IMG/VR virus record: IMGVR_UViG_3300014512_000020
Coordinates: 1 to 5,652 of that record
Source: a virus
Lineage: Duplodnaviria > Heunggongvirae > Uroviricota > Caudoviricetes
Strand: one strand, 5' to 3'
DNA: 5,652 bases
Part shown: piece by piece, positions 24-5,557 of the stretch
How the letters are laid out: every line of letters starts with the position of its first letter
How positions within the stretch are numbered: position 1 is the stretch's first letter
Notes under the pieces: model-generated
Told to the model about the DNA's origin: nothing
The model's database searches: none
Seen by the model: only the letters and a program-made list of their open reading frames with translations
Program-made: the position numbers and the translations under genes

Positions 24-1994
24 ATGGCATTTAAACACTATGACGTGGTCAGGGCGGCATCGCCGTCAGACCTTGCGGATGCGCTTGCTCAAAAAATTCG
101 TGAAGGATGGCAACCATACGGCGGGCCGTTTTCTTCGTATACGGATGATGGCGCAGCACTTATTCAGGCGATTGTCGCAGAAGGTAATGTCACCACACCT
201 GTGGTGGTGAAGCCGTCGGATGGAGAAGGCGCAGTTATCAGCACCACCAGCAACCCGGAGTATTACTTTGTTGTTGCCCTGGCCGGGCAGTCAAACGGTA
301 TGGCGTATGGTGAAGGGCTTCCGCTGCCGGAGACATATGACCGTCCGGACCCGCGTATTAAACAGCTGGCGCGTCGCAGCACTGTCACGCCGGGTGGTGC
401 GTCCTGTAACTACAATGACATTATTCCTGCGGACCACTGCCTGCATGATGTTCAGGATTTGAGTAAGTTTTCACACCCGAAAGCCAGTGCAGCTCAGTAT
501 GGATGCGTGGGGCAGGGATTACATATCGCGAAGAAATTGTTGCCGTTTATTCCGGCGAATGCCGGTATTCTTCTGGTTCCGTGCTGCCGTGGTGGTTCTG
601 CATTTTTGGCGGGCGATGAAGGTACCTTCAGCGAATCCACCGGCGCAAGCGAGACCTCGGCACGCTGGGGTGTAGATAAGCCACTGTACAAGGACCTGCT
701 TACCCGTACTCAGGCCGCACTGAAGGCCAACCCTAAAAATATTCTGCTTGCAGTGGTCTGGATGCAGGGCGAGTTTGATTTGAAACAGGGTGCATACGCC
801 ACTCAGCCGGGGCTGTTTGATTCCATGGTGGAAAAATATCGTTCTGACCTGTCGGAATTCGGAGGTCAGTGTCTCGGGGGCTCTCCGTCATCAGTTCCCT
901 GGATTTGTGGCGACACGACCTACTACTGGAAGCAGACTTATTCTTCGCAATACGATGCGGTGTATGGTGCATATAAGACGAAATCCGCAAAAAAAATCTT
1001 CTTTGTGCCGTTTATGACGGATGAAAACGGGCGAAATGTGGGTACCAACGAGCCGTCAGAAGATCCGGATGTTGCGGATATTGGGTATTACGGAGCCGGT
1101 GGTCGAACGGACGCCAAAACCTGGACGACGGCTGACCGTAAAACGCATTTTGGATCATGGGCACGTCGTGGGATTATTTCCGACCGTCTGGCAACGGCGA
1201 TTCTTGTGCATGCCGGGAGAACCGCTGAATTCATTACCGGAAAACAGCCTGATACGGTGAAGCCCACCGGACCTTCCGGTGAAGGTACGGAGAGAGAGCC
1301 GGAAGCTCCGGTCAGTAACCGAACCCTGATGAGTCTGCTGGCGTCCGGCGAAGACCTGGCATCACAGGGCTGGCGCTATTATCACAAACCGGCGAGCGGA
1401 GACAATGTTAACAAAAACATTGCTGAAGCGGTGGTCAGTGATGCGGGGGCTACGGGAGGTAAGGCCCTGCAACTGAATAAACCGGAAAACCACATCTGGT
1501 TTCTGGAGCATGATGCAGCCGGGCAGGGGGCAGAGTTGCTGAAGAAAGGAGGACGTGTGAGCGTACGGTTTAAGTTGCCGGGTTCACTGGTGCCGAATCA
1601 GTTTGCCCTGGGCATTTACTGGCAGTTGTCGTCCCTGCCGGAGGGAGTGACGCTGGCAGAGGAAGGCAACGACATGCTGATGTCCTTCTTCCTGCAGACG
1701 GATGCGACGAACCTGAACGCGATGCACCACAAGAAGCCGAATGCGAAGCTGGATACGTTCGGGGTCTTTGATAACGGATGGCACACACTGGCTTTTGAGT
1801 TTGCCGGAAACAACAGCATTCAGGTGACGCCGGTACTGGATGAGAAACGGGGGACGCCGTTCACACTGGTGAAATCTCCGGCATCAGGGGCGGCGGACAA
1901 ACTGCAACTGACAGGCATATCAAAGGCGGCGACATATACGCTGCTGATTGACAGTGTGAAGGTGGAAGTGAACAACGCGGATGCCGCGGCATGA
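24..1994 (+). CDS. nanS-p: Prophage sialate 9-O-acetylesterase, NanS-p-like (N-terminal DUF1737-like region, SGNH/SASA esterase core, C-terminal putative carbohydrate-binding region), 656 aa
   Basis: Long uninterrupted ORF with good RBS. N-terminus MAFKHYDVVRAASPSDLADALAQKIREGWQPYGG is the characteristic start of prophage NanS-p/933Wp42-type proteins. GQSN block with the putative nucleophile Ser90 (nt 285..296) is typical of the SASA/SGNH family. Size and position upstream of a lysis cassette match Stx-phage architecture. Domain names are from memory, not from a search. Confidence 0.85.
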   Translation: MAFKHYDVVRAASPSDLADALAQKIREGWQPYGGPFSSYTDDGAALIQAIVAEGNVTTPVVVKPSDGEGAVISTTSNPEYYFVVALAGQSNGMAYGEGLPLPETYDRPDPRIKQLARRSTVTPGGASCNYNDIIPADHCLHDVQDLSKFSHPKASAAQYGCVGQGLHIAKKLLPFIPANAGILLVPCCRGGSAFLAGDEGTFSESTGASETSARWGVDKPLYKDLLTRTQAALKANPKNILLAVVWMQGEFDLKQGAYATQPGLFDSMVEKYRSDLSEFGGQCLGGSPSSVPWICGDTTYYWKQTYSSQYDAVYGAYKTKSAKKIFFVPFMTDENGRNVGTNEPSEDPDVADIGYYGAGGRTDAKTWTTADRKTHFGSWARRGIISDRLATAILVHAGRTAEFITGKQPDTVKPTGPSGEGTEREPEAPVSNRTLMSLLASGEDLASQGWRYYHKPASGDNVNKNIAEAVVSDAGATGGKALQLNKPENHIWFLEHDAAGQGAELLKKGGRVSVRFKLPGSLVPNQFALGIYWQLSSLPEGVTLAEEGNDMLMSFFLQTDATNLNAMHHKKPNAKLDTFGVFDNGWHTLAFEFAGNNSIQVTPVLDEKRGTPFTLVKSPASGAADKLQLTGISKAATYTLLIDSVKVEVNNADAAA

Positions 1995-2145: not shown

Positions 2146-2328
2146 ATGACATTTCTGAACCAGTTAATGCTGTACTTCTGTACGGCAGTCTGTGTTATGT
2201 ATCTTCTTTCGGGTGGGTACAGGGCAGTGCGCGATTTCTGGCGCAGGCAGATTGATAAAAGGGCCGCTGAGAGAATCAGCGCCAGTCAGTCAGCCGGAAG
2301 CAAACCCGAAGATCCGCTCATTCCGTAG
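2146..2328 (+). CDS. Hypothetical small membrane protein, 60 aa (N-terminal hydrophobic helix LMLYFCTAVCVMYLLSGGY, basic C-terminal tail)
   Basis: ORF with a weak SD-like GGTGAG 5 nt upstream of the ATG; one predicted TM segment; same strand and intergenic placement as neighbouring genes. No homolog recognised. Confidence 0.35.
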   Translation: MTFLNQLMLYFCTAVCVMYLLSGGYRAVRDFWRRQIDKRAAERISASQSAGSKPEDPLIP

Positions 2329-2365: not shown

Positions 2366-2635
2366 ATGTCAGAAATCACATCCCTGGTCACTGCTGAGGC
2401 AGTGAAGGAAGTCCTGCGCTCTGAAGAAGTCCTGAGCGCACTGAAACAGAAACTCCGCCAGAACCTTGAGGCGCGTCTTGATGCAGAAGTGGATGCCATT
2501 CTGGATGAGCTGCTGGGCGTACCAGCGGTTCCGGAGCCGGAAGGCATTGCGGATGACAGTACTGTTTCAGATGGCGTCGGGTCTCAGCCTGACGGTAGTG
2601 AAGAGCCTCAGCCTGACGGCGAAATGATGATGTAA
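2366..2635 (+). CDS. Hypothetical highly acidic protein, 89 aa (MSEITSLVTAEAVKEVLR...; 21 Asp/Glu vs 6 Lys/Arg; C-terminal repeated QPDG motif)
   Basis: The ORF track gives 2192..2635 (147 aa), but the upstream extension is hydrophobic, low-complexity and overlaps the preceding ORF. ATG at 2366 gives a compact protein with a helical N-terminal half and an acidic, disordered-looking C-terminus. A TTGACA hexamer lies at 2337..2342 but has no good -10 partner. Confidence 0.6.
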   Translation: MSEITSLVTAEAVKEVLRSEEVLSALKQKLRQNLEARLDAEVDAILDELLGVPAVPEPEGIADDSTVSDGVGSQPDGSEEPQPDGEMMM

Positions 2636-2710
2636 CCATGCGCAGGGGGTGTCGGTGTGAGCTGATGCCCCACTTGTTGTTGTGAGCTTCCGGATTGCGG
2701 GAGACGGGGT

Positions 2711-2925
2711 ATGTACCAGATGGAAAAAATCACAACAGGTGTGTCATACACCACGTCAGCGGTGGGAACGGGCTNNNNNNNNNNNNNNNNNNNNNNNNNN
2801 NNNNNNNNNNNNNNNNNNNNGCAATAGGCGTGCTGGGGAGTCTGCTGTTTGGGCTGCTGACATATCTGACTAACCTGTATTTCAAAATCAGAGAGGACCG
2901 GCGTAAGGCGGCGCGGGGAGAGTAA
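2711..2925 (+). CDS. S: Holin S, phage-21 S21-like class II (pinholin-type) with dual-start motif M1-Y-Q-M4; central part masked by N
   Basis: N-terminus [21 protein letters not shown] (2711..2773) and C-terminus [34 protein letters not shown] (2821..2922, stop 2923..2925) both match lambdoid/Stx-phage S21-family holins from memory. GGGAG sits 7 nt upstream of the ATG. The two halves are in different frames across the 46-N run, consistent with a true gap of 47 nt (about 71 aa in total). Confidence 0.75.
2775..2820. other. Run of 46 ambiguous bases (N) inside the holin gene: an assembly gap or masked segment
   Basis: Read directly from sequence. Confidence 0.99.
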
Positions 2926-2926
2926 A

Positions 2927-3280
2927 GTGATGAATAAAAAATATGAACTGGTTGTTAAGGGGATAAATAATTACGGGGATAAGGTTACTGTTACTGTGAA
3001 GCCGGAAGGTGACAGGCAAGCGTCGCTGTTGTTGCCAGATGTGGCGATTAGTCTTGACCGTACTGAAGGTGCCACGCTGGAGTTTTACGAAGCTGAGGCG
3101 AAAAAGCAGGCGAAGCAGTTTTTCATGGATGTTGCTGCCGGGTTATGTGAAGGGGACGAACCGTTGCCGGAAAAGCGCCCCGTAATTTTAGAGGCGCAGA
3201 ATGTGTTGATAACCTACAAAGGAAAGCTACCGGGAAGAATTACTTGTTCTCTGAAGACTCCACCGGAATCACAACCTTAA
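2927..3280 (+). CDS. Hypothetical soluble protein, 117 aa, inserted between holin and endolysin (MMNKKYELVVKGINNYGDKVTVTVKPEGDR...)
   Basis: ORF begins 2 nt after the holin stop (GTG 2927 or ATG 2930) with GGAG at 2917..2920. No TM segment or signal peptide is evident; no family recognised. Compact spacing within the operon supports it being a real gene. Confidence 0.6.
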   Translation: MMNKKYELVVKGINNYGDKVTVTVKPEGDRQASLLLPDVAISLDRTEGATLEFYEAEAKKQAKQFFMDVAAGLCEGDEPLPEKRPVILEAQNVLITYKGKLPGRITCSLKTPPESQP

Positions 3281-3343
3281 TTCACTGACCGGAACAGATA
3301 AACCTGTCCGTGGGCAGAAACCGATAAATCCTGATAAATATCC

Positions 3344-3868
3344 ATGAACGCAAAAATCAGATACGGCCTGTCGGCTGCCGTTCTGGCGCTGGGTGCGCCT
3401 GCGCCTGACATTCTCGACCAGTTTCTGGATGAAAAGGAAGGTAACCACACCACGGCATACCGTGATGGTGCGGGTATCTGGACTATCTGCCGCGGTGCCA
3501 TCCTGGTGGATGGCAAACCTGTCGTTCCGGGCATGAAGTTGTCGAAGGAAAAATGCGACCAGGTTAACGCCATTGAGCGTGATAAAGCGCTGGCGTGGGT
3601 GGAGAAAAACATCAGAGTGCCACTGACCGAACCCCAGAAAGCGGGGATCGCGTCATTCTGTCCGTACAACATTGGTCCCGGTAAGTGTTTCCCGTCGACG
3701 TTTTATAAACGAATTAATGCAGGTGATCGCAGGGGAGCGTGTGAGGCGATTCGCTGGTGGATTAAGGACGGTGGCAGAGACTGCCGTATTCGTTCAAACA
3801 ACTGCTACGGTCAGGTATCCCGTCGTGACCAGGAGAGCGCGCTGGCGTGCTGGGGAATCGACAGATAA
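3344..3868 (+). CDS. R: Endolysin R, T4-lysozyme-like glycoside hydrolase family 24 muramidase, phage-21 R21-like; possible N-terminal SAR segment; 174 aa
   Basis: Catalytic triad spacing E32-x8-D41-x5-T47 (EGNHTTAYRDGAGIWT), characteristic of true lysozymes. The C-terminal segment KRINAGDRRGACEAIRWWIKDGG resembles R21 and P1 Lyz. The N-terminal Gly/Ala-rich weakly hydrophobic stretch YGLSAAVLALGAPAP is consistent with, but short for, a signal-anchor-release domain. Confidence 0.9.
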   Translation: MNAKIRYGLSAAVLALGAPAPDILDQFLDEKEGNHTTAYRDGAGIWTICRGAILVDGKPVVPGMKLSKEKCDQVNAIERDKALAWVEKNIRVPLTEPQKAGIASFCPYNIGPGKCFPSTFYKRINAGDRRGACEAIRWWIKDGGRDCRIRSNNCYGQVSRRDQESALACWGIDR

Positions 3869-3958
3869 GCAGAATATTTTGCTGAAAAATAAGGTATGGC
3901 CACGCGGGCGGATAACACGAAATCCTGCGAACTGGCGAAACGTAAGTGAATAAAAGTA

Positions 3959-3997
3959 AAAACCCCGTTTGTTGGCACCAAGCGGGGTTTTGTGTTT
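3959..3997 (+). terminator. Intrinsic-terminator-like hairpin: stem aaaaccccgtttg / caagcggggtttt (13 bp with one G-U), 7-nt loop, followed by a T-rich tract; A-run upstream makes it potentially bidirectional
   Basis: Read directly: arms 3959..3971 and 3979..3991, loop ttggcac, then gtgttt. It lies between the endolysin stop and the small ORF at 4028. Confidence 0.55.
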
Positions 3998-4027
3998 CCT
4001 GACTCCGGAAAAGTCAAAGGAGAAAGT

Positions 4028-4165
4028 GTGTTTGATTTTAGCAAACTGATTCGGGAGATTCGAGTGATGGCTGAAAAATTATCCACCTGGAAGTTCATTC
4101 TTATCTGGCTGGTGTTTGTGATTATGGCCTCCGGTTATTTCATCGGTCAGATACGCTGGTGGTGA
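4028..4165 (+). CDS. Hypothetical small single-pass membrane protein, 45 aa from GTG 4028 (or 32 aa from ATG 4067), translationally coupled to Rz
   Basis: Strong SD AGGAG (4018..4022) 5 nt before GTG 4028. Hydrophobic core WKFILIWLVFVIMASGYFIGQI. Stop TGA at 4163..4165 is 1 nt before the Rz ATG at 4167. No family recognised. Confidence 0.45.
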   Translation: MFDFSKLIREIRVMAEKLSTWKFILIWLVFVIMASGYFIGQIRWW

Positions 4166-4166
4166 A

Positions 4167-4604
4167 ATGAACCGCGTACTGTGCGTGGTCATCATTGCCC
4201 TGCTGGTGGCCTGTGGTGCGCTTAGTCTGGGGCTGAATCATTACCGTGATAACGCCATGACCTACAAAGAGCAGCGCGATAAAGCCACATCCATCATCGC
4301 TGATATGCAGAAGCGTCAACGTGATGTAGCAGAACTCGACGCCAGATACACAAAGGAGCTTGCTGATGCTAACGCGACTATCGAAAGTCTCCGTGCTGAT
4401 GTTTCTGCTGGTCGTAAGCGCCTGCAAGTCGCCGCCACCTGTGCAAAGTCAACGACCGGAGCCAGCAGCATGGGCGATGGAGAAAGCCCAAGACTTACAG
4501 CAGATGCTGAACTCAATTATTACCGTCTCCGAAGTGGAATCGACAAGATAACCGCGCAGGTTAACTACCTGCAGGAATACATCAGGACGCAATGCCTGAA
4601 ATAA
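4167..4604 (+). CDS. Rz: Rz, i-spanin (inner-membrane spanin subunit), 145 aa
   Basis: N-terminal TM helix, then the NHYRDNA...QRDK...RQRDVAELDARYTKELADA segment closely matching lambda Rz; coiled-coil-rich periplasmic domain; sits downstream of the endolysin. Confidence 0.9.
   Translation: MNRVLCVVIIALLVACGALSLGLNHYRDNAMTYKEQRDKATSIIADMQKRQRDVAELDARYTKELADANATIESLRADVSAGRKRLQVAATCAKSTTGASSMGDGESPRLTADAELNYYRLRSGIDKITAQVNYLQEYIRTQCLK
4366..4551 (+). CDS. Rz1: Rz1, o-spanin (outer-membrane lipoprotein subunit), embedded in the +1 frame inside Rz, 61 aa
   Basis: AAAGGAG (4353..4359) 6 nt before ATG 4366. Signal peptide MLTRLSKVSVLMFLLVVSAC with lipobox VSAC, followed by the Pro-rich mature part CKSPPPVQSQRPEP, as in lambda Rz1. 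The ORF track starts at 4360 (TTG); ATG 4366 is preferred. Confidence 0.8.
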   Translation: MLTRLSKVSVLMFLLVVSACKSPPPVQSQRPEPAAWAMEKAQDLQQMLNSIITVSEVESTR

Positions 4605-4805: not shown

Positions 4806-5303
4806 ATGAAATCATTAACCCTCTTCAATCAACCAATTCGTATCGGTGAAGATGGCATGATCTGCCTCACTGATATGTGGAAAGCCAGTGGTAAAAGTGA
4901 ATCTGAATCGCCTTACCACTACCTGCGAAACAAGCAGACCAAAGAGTTCTTAGCCGAGCTGGAGAAAAACCACGAATCTGTGGTTTTTACTGAGCGCGGT
5001 GTACACGGTGGAACATATGGCGGGAAGTTTGTTGCTTACGATTATGCGGCTTGGTTAAACCCCGGGTTCAAGTACGCGGCCTATAAAGTCCTCGATGACT
5101 ACTTCACCGGAGAACTTCAGCATCGCAACAGCTTAAGTGCGCAGCTCAACATGAAATGTCATGAGTTTGACCAGAAGAAAGACATGGCGAGCTTCTGCGG
5201 ACAAGGGCTGGCAGCATGGCGCTATACGAAGCCAGTGTTGGTCGCTGAGATTAACTCCCTGGCTAACCAGCTGCAGATTACGATCCCCGGGCTTCCGGGA
5301 TGA
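4806..5303 (+). CDS. KilA-N-like domain protein (putative DNA-binding / antirepressor-like), 165 aa
   Basis: N-terminal segment LTLFNQPIRIGEDGMICLTDMWKASGKSESESPYHYLRNKQTKEFLAEL fits the KilA-N pattern from memory (conserved Gly, aliphatic-x-T-D/E-hydrophobic-x-K-A-x-G-K, then W/Y-L-R and T-x-E-F). A Bro-N alternative is not excluded without an HMM search. Confidence 0.7.
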   Translation: MKSLTLFNQPIRIGEDGMICLTDMWKASGKSESESPYHYLRNKQTKEFLAELEKNHESVVFTERGVHGGTYGGKFVAYDYAAWLNPGFKYAAYKVLDDYFTGELQHRNSLSAQLNMKCHEFDQKKDMASFCGQGLAAWRYTKPVLVAEINSLANQLQITIPGLPG

Positions 5304-5557
5304 GTGATCGTGTTATTGAATGCGCCTCCAGAGCGGGGCGCGACTTCTCAGAGTTCATGAAAGGCGAGAAGGGCATGATGGAAGCATTGGCCTCGGTGGA
5401 TGAGTTTGGCGAGCAGCTGCGCCTCAACGGCTGTGTCAATCATCACTTTGTTAGCTACATGATGCGGAACTCGATCATGCAGGCATTCATGGACATGGCA
5501 AAAGCCGAGAGGAAAGAAGAGCGCCGGCGTAAGCGAGCGGAAGCAAAAGCGAAGTAG
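5300..5557 (+). CDS. Hypothetical protein, 85 aa, with a Lys/Arg/Glu-rich C-terminal tail (AKAERKEERRRKRAEAKAK); start overlaps the KilA-N stop (ATGA)
   Basis: The 4-nt ATGA start/stop overlap at 5300..5303 implies translational coupling to the upstream gene. No family recognised. Confidence 0.55.
   Translation: MSDRVIECASRAGRDFSEFMKGEKGMMEALASVDEFGEQLRLNGCVNHHFVSYMMRNSIMQAFMDMAKAERKEERRRKRAEAKAK

Follow-up and report, generated by a model that had tools for sequence, protein, structure and literature searches.

Gene order of the lysis module and its relatives

The window, by which we mean the whole stretch of 5,652 nucleotides analyzed, encodes on its plus strand a holin (S), a YdfR-family protein, a GH24 lysozyme (R), a 45-residue predicted membrane protein (ORF45) preceded by a hairpin, and the spanins Rz and Rz1. 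Every cassette part listed in an earlier note on this DNA lies where that note had placed it, including the two extra ORFs (2927/2930..3280 and 4028..4165), and profile searches upheld its family calls for S, Rz and Rz1 (PF04971, PF03245 and PF06085, respectively). Very probably, the region comes from an E. coli lambdoid prophage of the H-19B/Qin type and is the lysis module of its late operon. As a type this cassette is already known, being the standard lysis module beside the stx genes in Shiga-toxin phages, 99% of which are predicted to carry a SAR endolysin and a pinholin (PMC8136144). The holin of H-19B has been placed among the P21-family pinholins (PMC10462455), and the pinholin and SAR-endolysin logic is an accepted prediction for H-19B-type cassettes (PMC8136144, PMC10462455).

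The five-gene layout is common to many complete E. coli genomes, with 98.5-99.2% identity over the 2-kb module among the matches listed; at least 80% of the module is covered in 107 genomes, and some part of it is present in 4,821 of the 5,426 complete E. coli genomes. RefSeq labels along these relatives read class II holin, YdfR family, lysozyme, (hypothetical) and lysis protein. Three layouts occur: a compact essD-rrrD-rzpD arrangement (DLP12), one with ydfR and without ORF45 (Qin, L029-L038), and one with both (H-19B, the window and E. coli S88, an intact relative at NC_011742 577504..579407). Synteny therefore shows the expansion by two ORFs, which had been taken for something unusual, to be an ordinary layout that recurs across E. 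coli and Stx phages. Nor are the two ORFs peculiar to this locus, as had been supposed: ydfR is long annotated, and ORF45 is RefSeq WP_000459345.1, found in 1,972 of the 5,426 genomes. The earlier note had itself allowed that they might prove to be long-annotated, widespread parts of known function, and this holds for annotation and spread but not for function.

Phage H-19B (AF034975) and the Stx1- and Stx2-converting phages, in which the module is ~92% identical to that of the window, share its order of S, (ydfR), R, hairpin plus ORF45, and Rz/Rz1. In H-19B this nucleotide identity begins upstream of S and runs as far as Rz codon ~39, and the two loci have in common an upstream context of a nanS-p esterase, DUF1378 and DUF826; homology stops at ~4283 of the window, the periplasmic part of the H-19B Rz being another allele. 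The H-19B record annotates S, R and Rz only, and relative to its lysis region the window R is three residues short. The cryptic prophage Qin of K-12 (essQ-ydfR-rrrQ-rzpQ/rzoQ) likewise has a P21-type holin (79% identity), an intervening ydfR and an RrrQ lysozyme (88%). It differs from the window in lacking the hairpin and ORF45, in having a spanin of the DUF2514 family, and in its YdfR, which is 103 residues long, has a different C-terminus and is 46% identical to the window protein over 74 residues.

Phage 21 and DLP12 of K-12 (essD-rrrD-rzpD/rzoD), the paradigm of the compact pinholin and SAR-endolysin cassette, share with the window the holin family (80% identity to K-12 EssD), the dual start, a G40xxxS44xxxG48 motif in TMD2, a GH24 lysozyme that has an anchor (putative and shortened in the window) at its N-terminus, and embedded Rz/Rz1. 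Their lysozyme is only 32% identical to that of the window, their genes overlap, and both ydfR and ORF45 are missing. Residues 2-3 of the long holin are Tyr-Gln in the window versus Lys-Ser in phage 21 and DLP12; in S21 the extra positive charge of the long form is tied to antiholin behavior, and this charge is missing from the window holin.

Holin, lysozyme and spanins of the window copy

The holin gene (2711..2925) is assigned to the P21 holin S family (class II, pinholin type) by PF04971 and its identity to EssD. The dual start reported earlier is present: ATG TAC CAG ATG at 2711..2722 encodes M-Y-Q-M, with expected products of 71 and 68 residues from Met1 and Met4, and the N-termini of relatives read MKSM, MDQM or MYQM. 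The gene does not, however, read through from this start as a single frame, for 46 N at 2775..2820 mask codons 22-37 and split it into an N-terminal part (2711..2773) and a C-terminal part (2821..2925) whose frames, as given, do not agree; between these flanks, the closest relatives have 47 nt. The visible C-terminal 34 residues match PF04971 at 54.5 bits (cut-off, 26 bits), and a relative from L003 with a full-length holin and flanks identical to those of the window scores 112.5 bits and matches the holin profiles phrog_9876/phrog_20. Holins of the relatives have uncharged stretches at residues 7-25 and 36-54; in the window the mask hides half of TMD1, and the holin may not be intact.

R (3344..3868) encodes a 174-residue GH24 lysozyme of the RrrQ type (PF00959, 86.2 bits), in which the E-8-D-5-T catalytic triad described earlier is found as E32-x8-D41-x5-T47. 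Its PDB matches are 7m5i, 3hde/3hdf (R21) and 4zpu (RrrD). Assignment to a phage-21-type cassette is correct as far as the GH24 family goes, but does not make R an orthologue of R21; R is of the RrrQ type instead, with 88% identity to Qin RrrQ versus 32% to RrrD/R21. The Gly/Ala-rich N-terminus is likewise real but is three residues shorter than in every relative, the SAR-like segment having a private in-frame 9-nt deletion (Ile-Ala-Ala). This deletion was absent from the 5,426 complete E. coli genomes, from a collection of 15 billion proteins (exact-protein look-up), and from three contig collections, viral, genome and metagenome (exact-pattern scans). The uncharged stretch at the N-terminus is 15 residues long in the window versus 18 in relatives, and the 19-residue Kyte-Doolittle maximum is 1.09 versus 1.67-1.74, which puts the shortened anchor under the usual hydropathy threshold.

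The i-spanin Rz (4167..4604; 145 residues; PF03245, 126.8 bits; phrog_13) has an N-terminal TM segment (residues 4-22; Kyte-Doolittle maximum, 2.82), and its periplasmic part is 97% identical in nucleotides to the Rz of L037, which abuts R directly. Rz1 (4366..4551), a 61-residue o-spanin lipoprotein (PF06085, 72.6 bits; phrog_3198), is nested as had been described: Rz contains it entirely, in the +1 frame, and it has the lipobox V-S-A-C and a Shine-Dalgarno (SD) sequence, AAGGAG, 7 nt upstream.

From the homology of these core components we infer a lysis pathway of the following kind. The two products of a P21-S-type holin, from Met1 and Met4, would build up in the inner membrane and depolarize it through small holes. 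The lysozyme would be exported by Sec and stay inactive while tethered by a weakly hydrophobic N-terminal anchor that is not cleaved; depolarization would free it to degrade the wall, and in a final step Rz and Rz1 would fuse the inner and outer membranes. SAR behavior of RrrQ-type lysozymes is a prediction (PMC8136144), and our literature search found no experiment on it. With its anchor cut to 15 uncharged residues of low hydropathy, the window copy may not work as described.

The cassette could even be decaying and lysis-defective within a cryptic prophage, through a real 1-nt deletion in the holin, which under the mask would cause a frameshift inside TMD1, together with a crippled R anchor. 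The 46 N in place of the 47 nt of all close relatives would fit such a history, as would the R deletion, found in none of the genomes, proteins and contigs searched, and the fall in the hydropathy maximum of R. On the other hand, the length of the N mask may be inexact, the R deletion keeps the frame, and the n-region/h-region layout that remains could still allow export of the protein, and the remaining ORFs of the window are all intact. We therefore regard decay as possible but doubtful.

ydfR, a fixed partner of the holin and lysozyme genes

The first extra ORF, ydfR (2930..3280), encodes a 116-residue protein of the YdfR family (DUF1327; PF07041, 139.9 bits). It starts 4 nt past the holin stop codon, the GTG at 2927 chosen in the earlier note being an alternative start. 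The protein has neither a TM segment nor a signal sequence and is predicted to be cytoplasmic; its phrog matches (phrog_406/2091) are of unknown function, RefSeq names it 'YdfR family protein', and Pfam, NCBIfam and PADLOC gave DUF1327 and no further match. All loci examined, Qin of K-12 (essQ-ydfR-rrrQ) among them, have the gene flanked by a P21-type holin and an RrrQ-type lysozyme, and at 10 of 10 further places sampled homologues with 64-67% identity occupy this same position. ydfR is thus an accessory gene that is a fixed partner of these two. It evolves much faster than they do, with an omega of 0.47 versus 0.09 for S and 0.05 for R in one and the same genome pair. The K-12 protein binds the N-terminal, catalytic half of RNase E and co-purifies RNA, and its overproduction is not toxic (PMC13232886).

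The strict slot of ydfR, 4 nt past the holin stop codon and ahead of the lysozyme in all loci, invites the view that YdfR is a lysis-timing factor or an accessory of the endolysin or holin, and not a factor of RNA metabolism; a published screen, known to us as cited in PMC13232886, also ties ydfR to envelope integrity. We consider such a role unlikely, given that the protein has no TM segment or signal sequence, that it binds the N-terminal half of RNase E and RNA and is not toxic when overproduced (PMC13232886), that its omega far exceeds those of S and R, and that the gene is missing from DLP12/phage-21-type cassettes. The ydfR product would instead be a fast-evolving cytoplasmic accessory that is not required to account for lysis.

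The hairpin and ORF45 as a mobile unit

Between R and Rz lies a G+C-rich hairpin (3959..3991), a 13-bp stem followed by a T-run and flanked by an A-run and the T-run in the manner of a bidirectional terminator, and downstream of it ORF45 (4028..4165). Every locus with ORF45 keeps the hairpin ahead of it, and compensatory changes occur at 7 of 12 pairs. ORF45 begins with GTG behind the SD sequence AAGGAG and stops 1 nt before the Rz ATG. It matches phrog_6632 over its full length (positions 1-45 of 45; E=1.2e-29; 102.9 bits), carries the RefSeq name hypothetical protein, and gave no match in Pfam, NCBIfam or PADLOC. Hydropathy and hydrophobic moment predict a bitopic inner-membrane protein with an N-terminal amphipathic helix (residues ~2-22), a TM segment (~23-42) and the terminal residues RWW. 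The family comprises 40 clusters at 50% identity and has a dN/dS of 0.09-0.26: ORF45 is a real gene under selection that encodes a small membrane protein. Its most conserved part is the cytoplasmic amphipathic helix, whose codons (2-22) are under extra synonymous constraint.

Hairpin and ORF together form a unit of ~215 bp with the hairpin at its 5' end; among copies in other contexts, homology begins at ~3950-3983 and ends exactly at the stop codon. Escherichia, Salmonella and Citrobacter have the unit at the endolysin-spanin junction; Yersinia, Pantoea, phage SEN34, Rac-SA53, Sodalis, Azoarcus and a Pseudomonas phage have it in baseplate or tail clusters. As unrelated phages carry it in their baseplate and tail clusters too, it is a mobile passenger and not a lysis-specific gene. 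In the window, the unit has been inserted between R and Rz. A scan of the window for a plus-strand sigma-70-like promoter near ORF45 found none, and we accordingly assume that ORF45 is translated with the late transcript; like ydfR, it would not be required to account for lysis.

The unit resembles the morons of lambdoid phages (lambda bor/lom, HK97 gp15) in being a small accessory gene, variably present between otherwise adjacent late genes at positions that differ among phages, and in encoding a membrane protein. A classical moron, however, is preceded by a promoter of its own and followed by a terminator, whereas in this unit the terminator-like hairpin comes first, no promoter was detectable, and the stop codon marks the end. 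Tentatively, we suggest that it is a self-contained, insertion-tolerant cassette with its own, so far undescribed function, which, in temperate phages as unrelated as those of Escherichia, Pseudomonas and Azoarcus, would have spread through endolysin/spanin junctions and baseplate/tail clusters. Its recurrent features are the covarying terminator-like hairpin at its opening and a start codon that is non-ATG in 15 of 15 loci, always GTG or TTG. An invariant internal Met14 behind GGGAG makes a second product possible, and the end TGG-TGG-TGA resembles a ribosome-binding site for the next gene.

A dedicated lysis regulator that acts in the membrane on spanin or holin, for example by delaying Rz or as an antiholin-like partner, is an improbable identity for ORF45. 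Its stop codon does lie 1 nt before the i-spanin start in lysis contexts, a spacing held across three holin families, two endolysin families (GH24 and GH19) and two spanin families (PF03245 and DUF2514), and its predicted N-in single-pass topology is that of Rz. The unit nevertheless occurs, at 60-89% protein identity, between baseplate spike/wedge genes or after tail-fibre genes with no adjacent lysis gene, and is missing from many cassettes of the same type, in which R overlaps Rz directly. The baseplate and tail-cluster copies likewise speak against the more specific idea of a spanin partner.

It is very improbable that hairpin and ORF45 are a type I toxin-antitoxin pair, with a hydrophobic toxin repressed by an antisense RNA ending at the bidirectional hairpin: the small hydrophobic peptide, its constant non-ATG start, a short helix overlapping the SD sequence, the synonymous constraint and the runs on both sides of the hairpin would suit such a pair, but the unit starts ~10 nt before the hairpin and so has no room for a sense promoter of its own, the sole minus-strand promoter-like site of the window was rejected as an antisense promoter after alignment showed it not to be conserved in other loci, and the best-conserved part of ORF45, a cytoplasmic amphipathic helix, is unlike type I toxins. 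The short helix is itself mostly conserved and not covarying, with two compensatory pairs and with 38-58 of 500 shuffles reaching the observed values; no consensus RNA structure was predicted for the ORF45 leader and first 22 codons, and an Rfam scan of the window gave chance-level matches only.

The lysis cassette itself adds nothing new, as the module is present in most E. coli genomes. For the extra genes, position alone is no ground to call them lysis genes, since ydfR has a published RNase E lead and ORF45 is a mobile passenger. Owing to the lesions of the window copy the prophage could be incapable of lysis, a point to weigh when prophage inducibility is judged from this locus. The ORF45 unit, with 45 codons and a wide distribution, is a cheap experimental target; if it is indeed a self-contained cassette, ORF45 may have a role such as the exclusion of incoming phage or the control, late in infection, of a step at the membrane.

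A lysis cassette of known layout

The window, 5,652 bases long, corresponds to the late region of a lambdoid prophage of E. coli. It opens with genes for a NanS-p-like sialate O-acetylesterase (24..1994; DUF1737, SASA and DUF6645), a DUF1378 protein (2146..2328) and a DUF826 protein (2366..2635), an arrangement upstream of the holin that is shared with Stx phages; its nearest relatives, L003 and L004, have annotated tRNA genes, and none for stx, in the part examined 5' of the esterase. A terminator-like hairpin of 11 pairs followed by a T-rich tail (2646..2671) lies between DUF826 and the holin start, within the late operon. The lysis cassette then comprises the holin gene S (2711..2925), a DUF1327 ORF (2930..3280), the GH24 lysozyme gene R (3344..3868), a second terminator-like hairpin (3959..3991), a 45-codon ORF (ORF45; 4028..4165) and the i-spanin gene Rz (4167..4604), with the o-spanin gene Rz1 (4366..4551) in its +1 frame. 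Downstream are the gene for a 165-aa KilA-N/ORF11CD3 protein (4806..5303), which weakly matches the PADLOC candidate PDC-S22 (E=1.2e-8), and an 85-codon ORF (phrog_875; 5300..5557) that overlaps its stop by ATGA; this pair is also found 3' of Rz in L034, a locus with ydfR and without ORF45.

The earlier note described this cassette as an unusual expansion by two intercalated ORFs. Every element that it names is present, both ORFs included, but the expansion is not unusual: the same layout is widespread in E. coli genomes and Stx phages. The cassette has been described before and is very common, and both ORFs belong to already catalogued families. Many complete E. coli genomes, including those of the ExPEC strains S88 and MS7163, match 98% of the length of the 2-kb region at 98.5-99.2% identity; at least 80% of the region is covered in 107 genomes, and some part of it in 4,821 of 5,426. 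Identity is about 92% in phage H-19B and in Stx1a-, Stx2a- and Stx2c-converting phages, whose cassettes have been described as pinholin, predicted SAR endolysin and Rz/Rz1 (PMC8136144). RefSeq names the five genes class II holin family protein, YdfR family protein, lysozyme, (hypothetical protein) and lysis protein. Three layouts can be distinguished: a compact one with overlapping genes (essD-rrrD-rzpD/rzoD of DLP12); one with ydfR (essQ-ydfR-rrrQ-rzpQ of K-12 Qin), also seen, with R overlapping Rz, at 10 of 10 sites sampled through YdfR homologues of 64-67% identity; and one with both ydfR and ORF45, found in H-19B, S88 and the window.

Holin, lysozyme and spanins

The dual-start M-Y-Q-M of the holin can be read directly in the window (ATG TAC CAG ATG). 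The earlier note overlooked a run of 46 N (2775..2820) within the gene; as given, its first 21 and last 34 codons do not share a frame. The closest relatives have exactly 47 nt between the same flanks, yielding a 71-codon ORF; either the run conceals a 1-nt deletion or its length is inexact, and the holin may therefore not be intact. The visible C-terminal fragment passes the PF04971 threshold by itself (54.5 bits), S shares 80% identity with EssD and 79% with EssQ, and the H-19B holin has been assigned to the P21 holin S family (PMC10462455).

The predicted catalytic triad of the endolysin is likewise in place (E32-x8-D41-x5-T47), with a match to PF00959, and most family assignments of a phage-21-type cassette hold. 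The exception is R, which is of RrrQ rather than R21 type: it is 88% identical to RrrQ and only 32% to RrrD, and a PDB search with R retrieves R21 (3hde/3hdf) and RrrD (4zpu) at E~1e-15. The holin is thus phage-21-like, whereas R belongs to a GH24 lineage distinct from that of R21, with an N-terminal anchor design common to both.

Within that anchor, R carries a private in-frame 9-nt deletion (3393/3394) that removes Ile-Ala-Ala from the hydrophobic segment, leaving an uncharged stretch of 15 residues versus 18 and a 19-residue Kyte-Doolittle maximum of 1.09 versus 1.67-1.74 in its absence. None of the 5,426 complete E. coli genomes has the deletion, the extra 9 nt being present in every one of their best full-length matches, and it was not found in the protein collection or in three contig collections. 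It may weaken membrane anchoring of R, or may convert the segment into an ordinary signal peptide.

Rz matches PF03245 and Rz1 matches PF06085; the nested Rz1 has the expected lipobox (VSAC) and is preceded by an AAGGAG ribosome-binding site. Rz is a mosaic: its part beyond about 4229 shares 97% nucleotide identity with the Rz of another E. coli prophage (L037), which directly adjoins R and has a lambda-like N-terminal TM segment; H-19B-type phages present the opposite pattern, matching the first ~39 codons and differing in the remainder.

The YdfR protein

The ORF that starts 4 nt past the holin stop encodes a YdfR/DUF1327 protein (139.9 bits), whose homologues are almost exclusively from Escherichia and Shigella. 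The window protein lacks a TM segment; in an AlphaFold2 model, residues ~4-72 form, at moderate confidence, a strand-strand-helix-strand-helix arrangement, with disorder beyond. Variants with a C-terminal extension of ~60 aa (176-183 aa) are common. YdfR has diverged much faster than its neighbours: against the cassette variant of L029 (ydfR at 2501..2851), omega is 0.47 for YdfR, compared with 0.09 for the holin and 0.05 for the lysozyme, and most YdfR changes fall within codons 1-45. According to a 2026 study, K-12 YdfR uses its first 72 residues to bind RNase E at the N-terminal catalytic half, DNase-resistant nucleic acid co-purifies with it, expression is absent under standard conditions, and overproduction does not impair growth (PMC13232886). 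We take the window protein to be a cytoplasmic factor accessory to this lineage of cassettes, not a lysis effector; its target is possibly RNA turnover late in infection.

The hairpin and ORF45 unit

ORF45 is a genuine gene. Its match to phrog_6632 is full-length, some RefSeq genomes annotate it as WP_000459345.1, and its relatives fall into 40 clusters at 50% identity; its dN/dS is 0.09-0.26 against the Salmonella, E. fergusonii, Yersinia, Izhakiella, Sodalis, Brenneria and Pantoea copies. The most conserved part of the protein is an N-terminal amphipathic helix (hydrophobic moment up to 0.59), xSK(L/I)IRE(L/I)RxMxEKLxxWKF, followed by one TM segment and a tail of 3-5 residues. The start codon is GTG or TTG in all 15 copies examined, and GGGAG stands before an invariant Met14. 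The end of the gene, TGG TGG TGA, looks like a ribosome-binding site that could serve the gene after it. In codons 2-22 (4031..4093) synonymous divergence is 0.24-0.51, two- to four-fold below the 0.87-0.97 of the TM half, suggesting an overlapping nucleotide-level constraint; no consensus RNA fold accounting for it was predicted over the leader and codons 1-22, and a short helix over the Shine-Dalgarno sequence is weakly supported.

The hairpin has compensatory changes in 7 of 12 pairs and looks like a bidirectional terminator, since an A-run precedes it and a T-run follows. No promoter for ORF45 was found in the window, and we therefore assume that it is read with the late transcript, Q-modified polymerase passing the hairpin. 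A type I toxin-antitoxin system is unlikely: no promoter of its own would fit within the unit, and the antisense promoter-like site is not conserved.

The position of ORF45 suggested a link to the spanins: only 1 nt separates its stop from the i-spanin ATG in E. coli, Salmonella, Citrobacter and E. fergusonii, in Salmonella beside an HP1-type holin and an R21-like lysozyme, and in E. fergusonii with holin_8, a GH19 lysozyme and a DUF2514 spanin. A genome scan spoke against this reading by revealing baseplate and tail contexts: ORF45 is flanked by baseplate spike and wedge genes in Yersinia, Pantoea, phage SEN34 of Salmonella and phage Rac-SA53 of E. coli, lies 3' of genes for tail fibres or of tape-measure size in Sodalis, Brenneria and Symbiopectobacterium, and occurs also in an Azoarcus MAG and a Pseudomonas phage tail region.

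In the E. fergusonii locus L010, a second small TM ORF (phrog_12997; 3755..3904), ending KWW then TGA-T-ATG, and, following it, a 13-codon remnant with a lambda-Rz-like start (MSRV...) lie directly upstream of the unit. The window spacer between R and the hairpin (3869..3958) contains a short conserved stretch, GGATAAC..AAATCCT, common to the lysis-context copies of Salmonella (L005, 3850..3925) and Edwardsiella (L017, 3378..3425); as no reading frame is maintained there, it may be left over from an older junction.

The hairpin precedes ORF45 in every other context found. At the nucleotide level, homology of the window to these copies begins at about 3950-3983 and ends precisely with the stop codon at 4165, giving a ~215-bp unit with sharp borders; it is present in 1,972 of the 5,426 complete E. 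coli genomes. Occurring both at endolysin/spanin junctions and in baseplate and tail clusters of unrelated phages (Enterobacterales, Pseudomonas, Azoarcus), the unit is therefore not lysis-specific. The placement of ORF45 in a compact mobile unit of odd architecture is the sole, mildly new point here: the unit is a mobile passenger of late operons.
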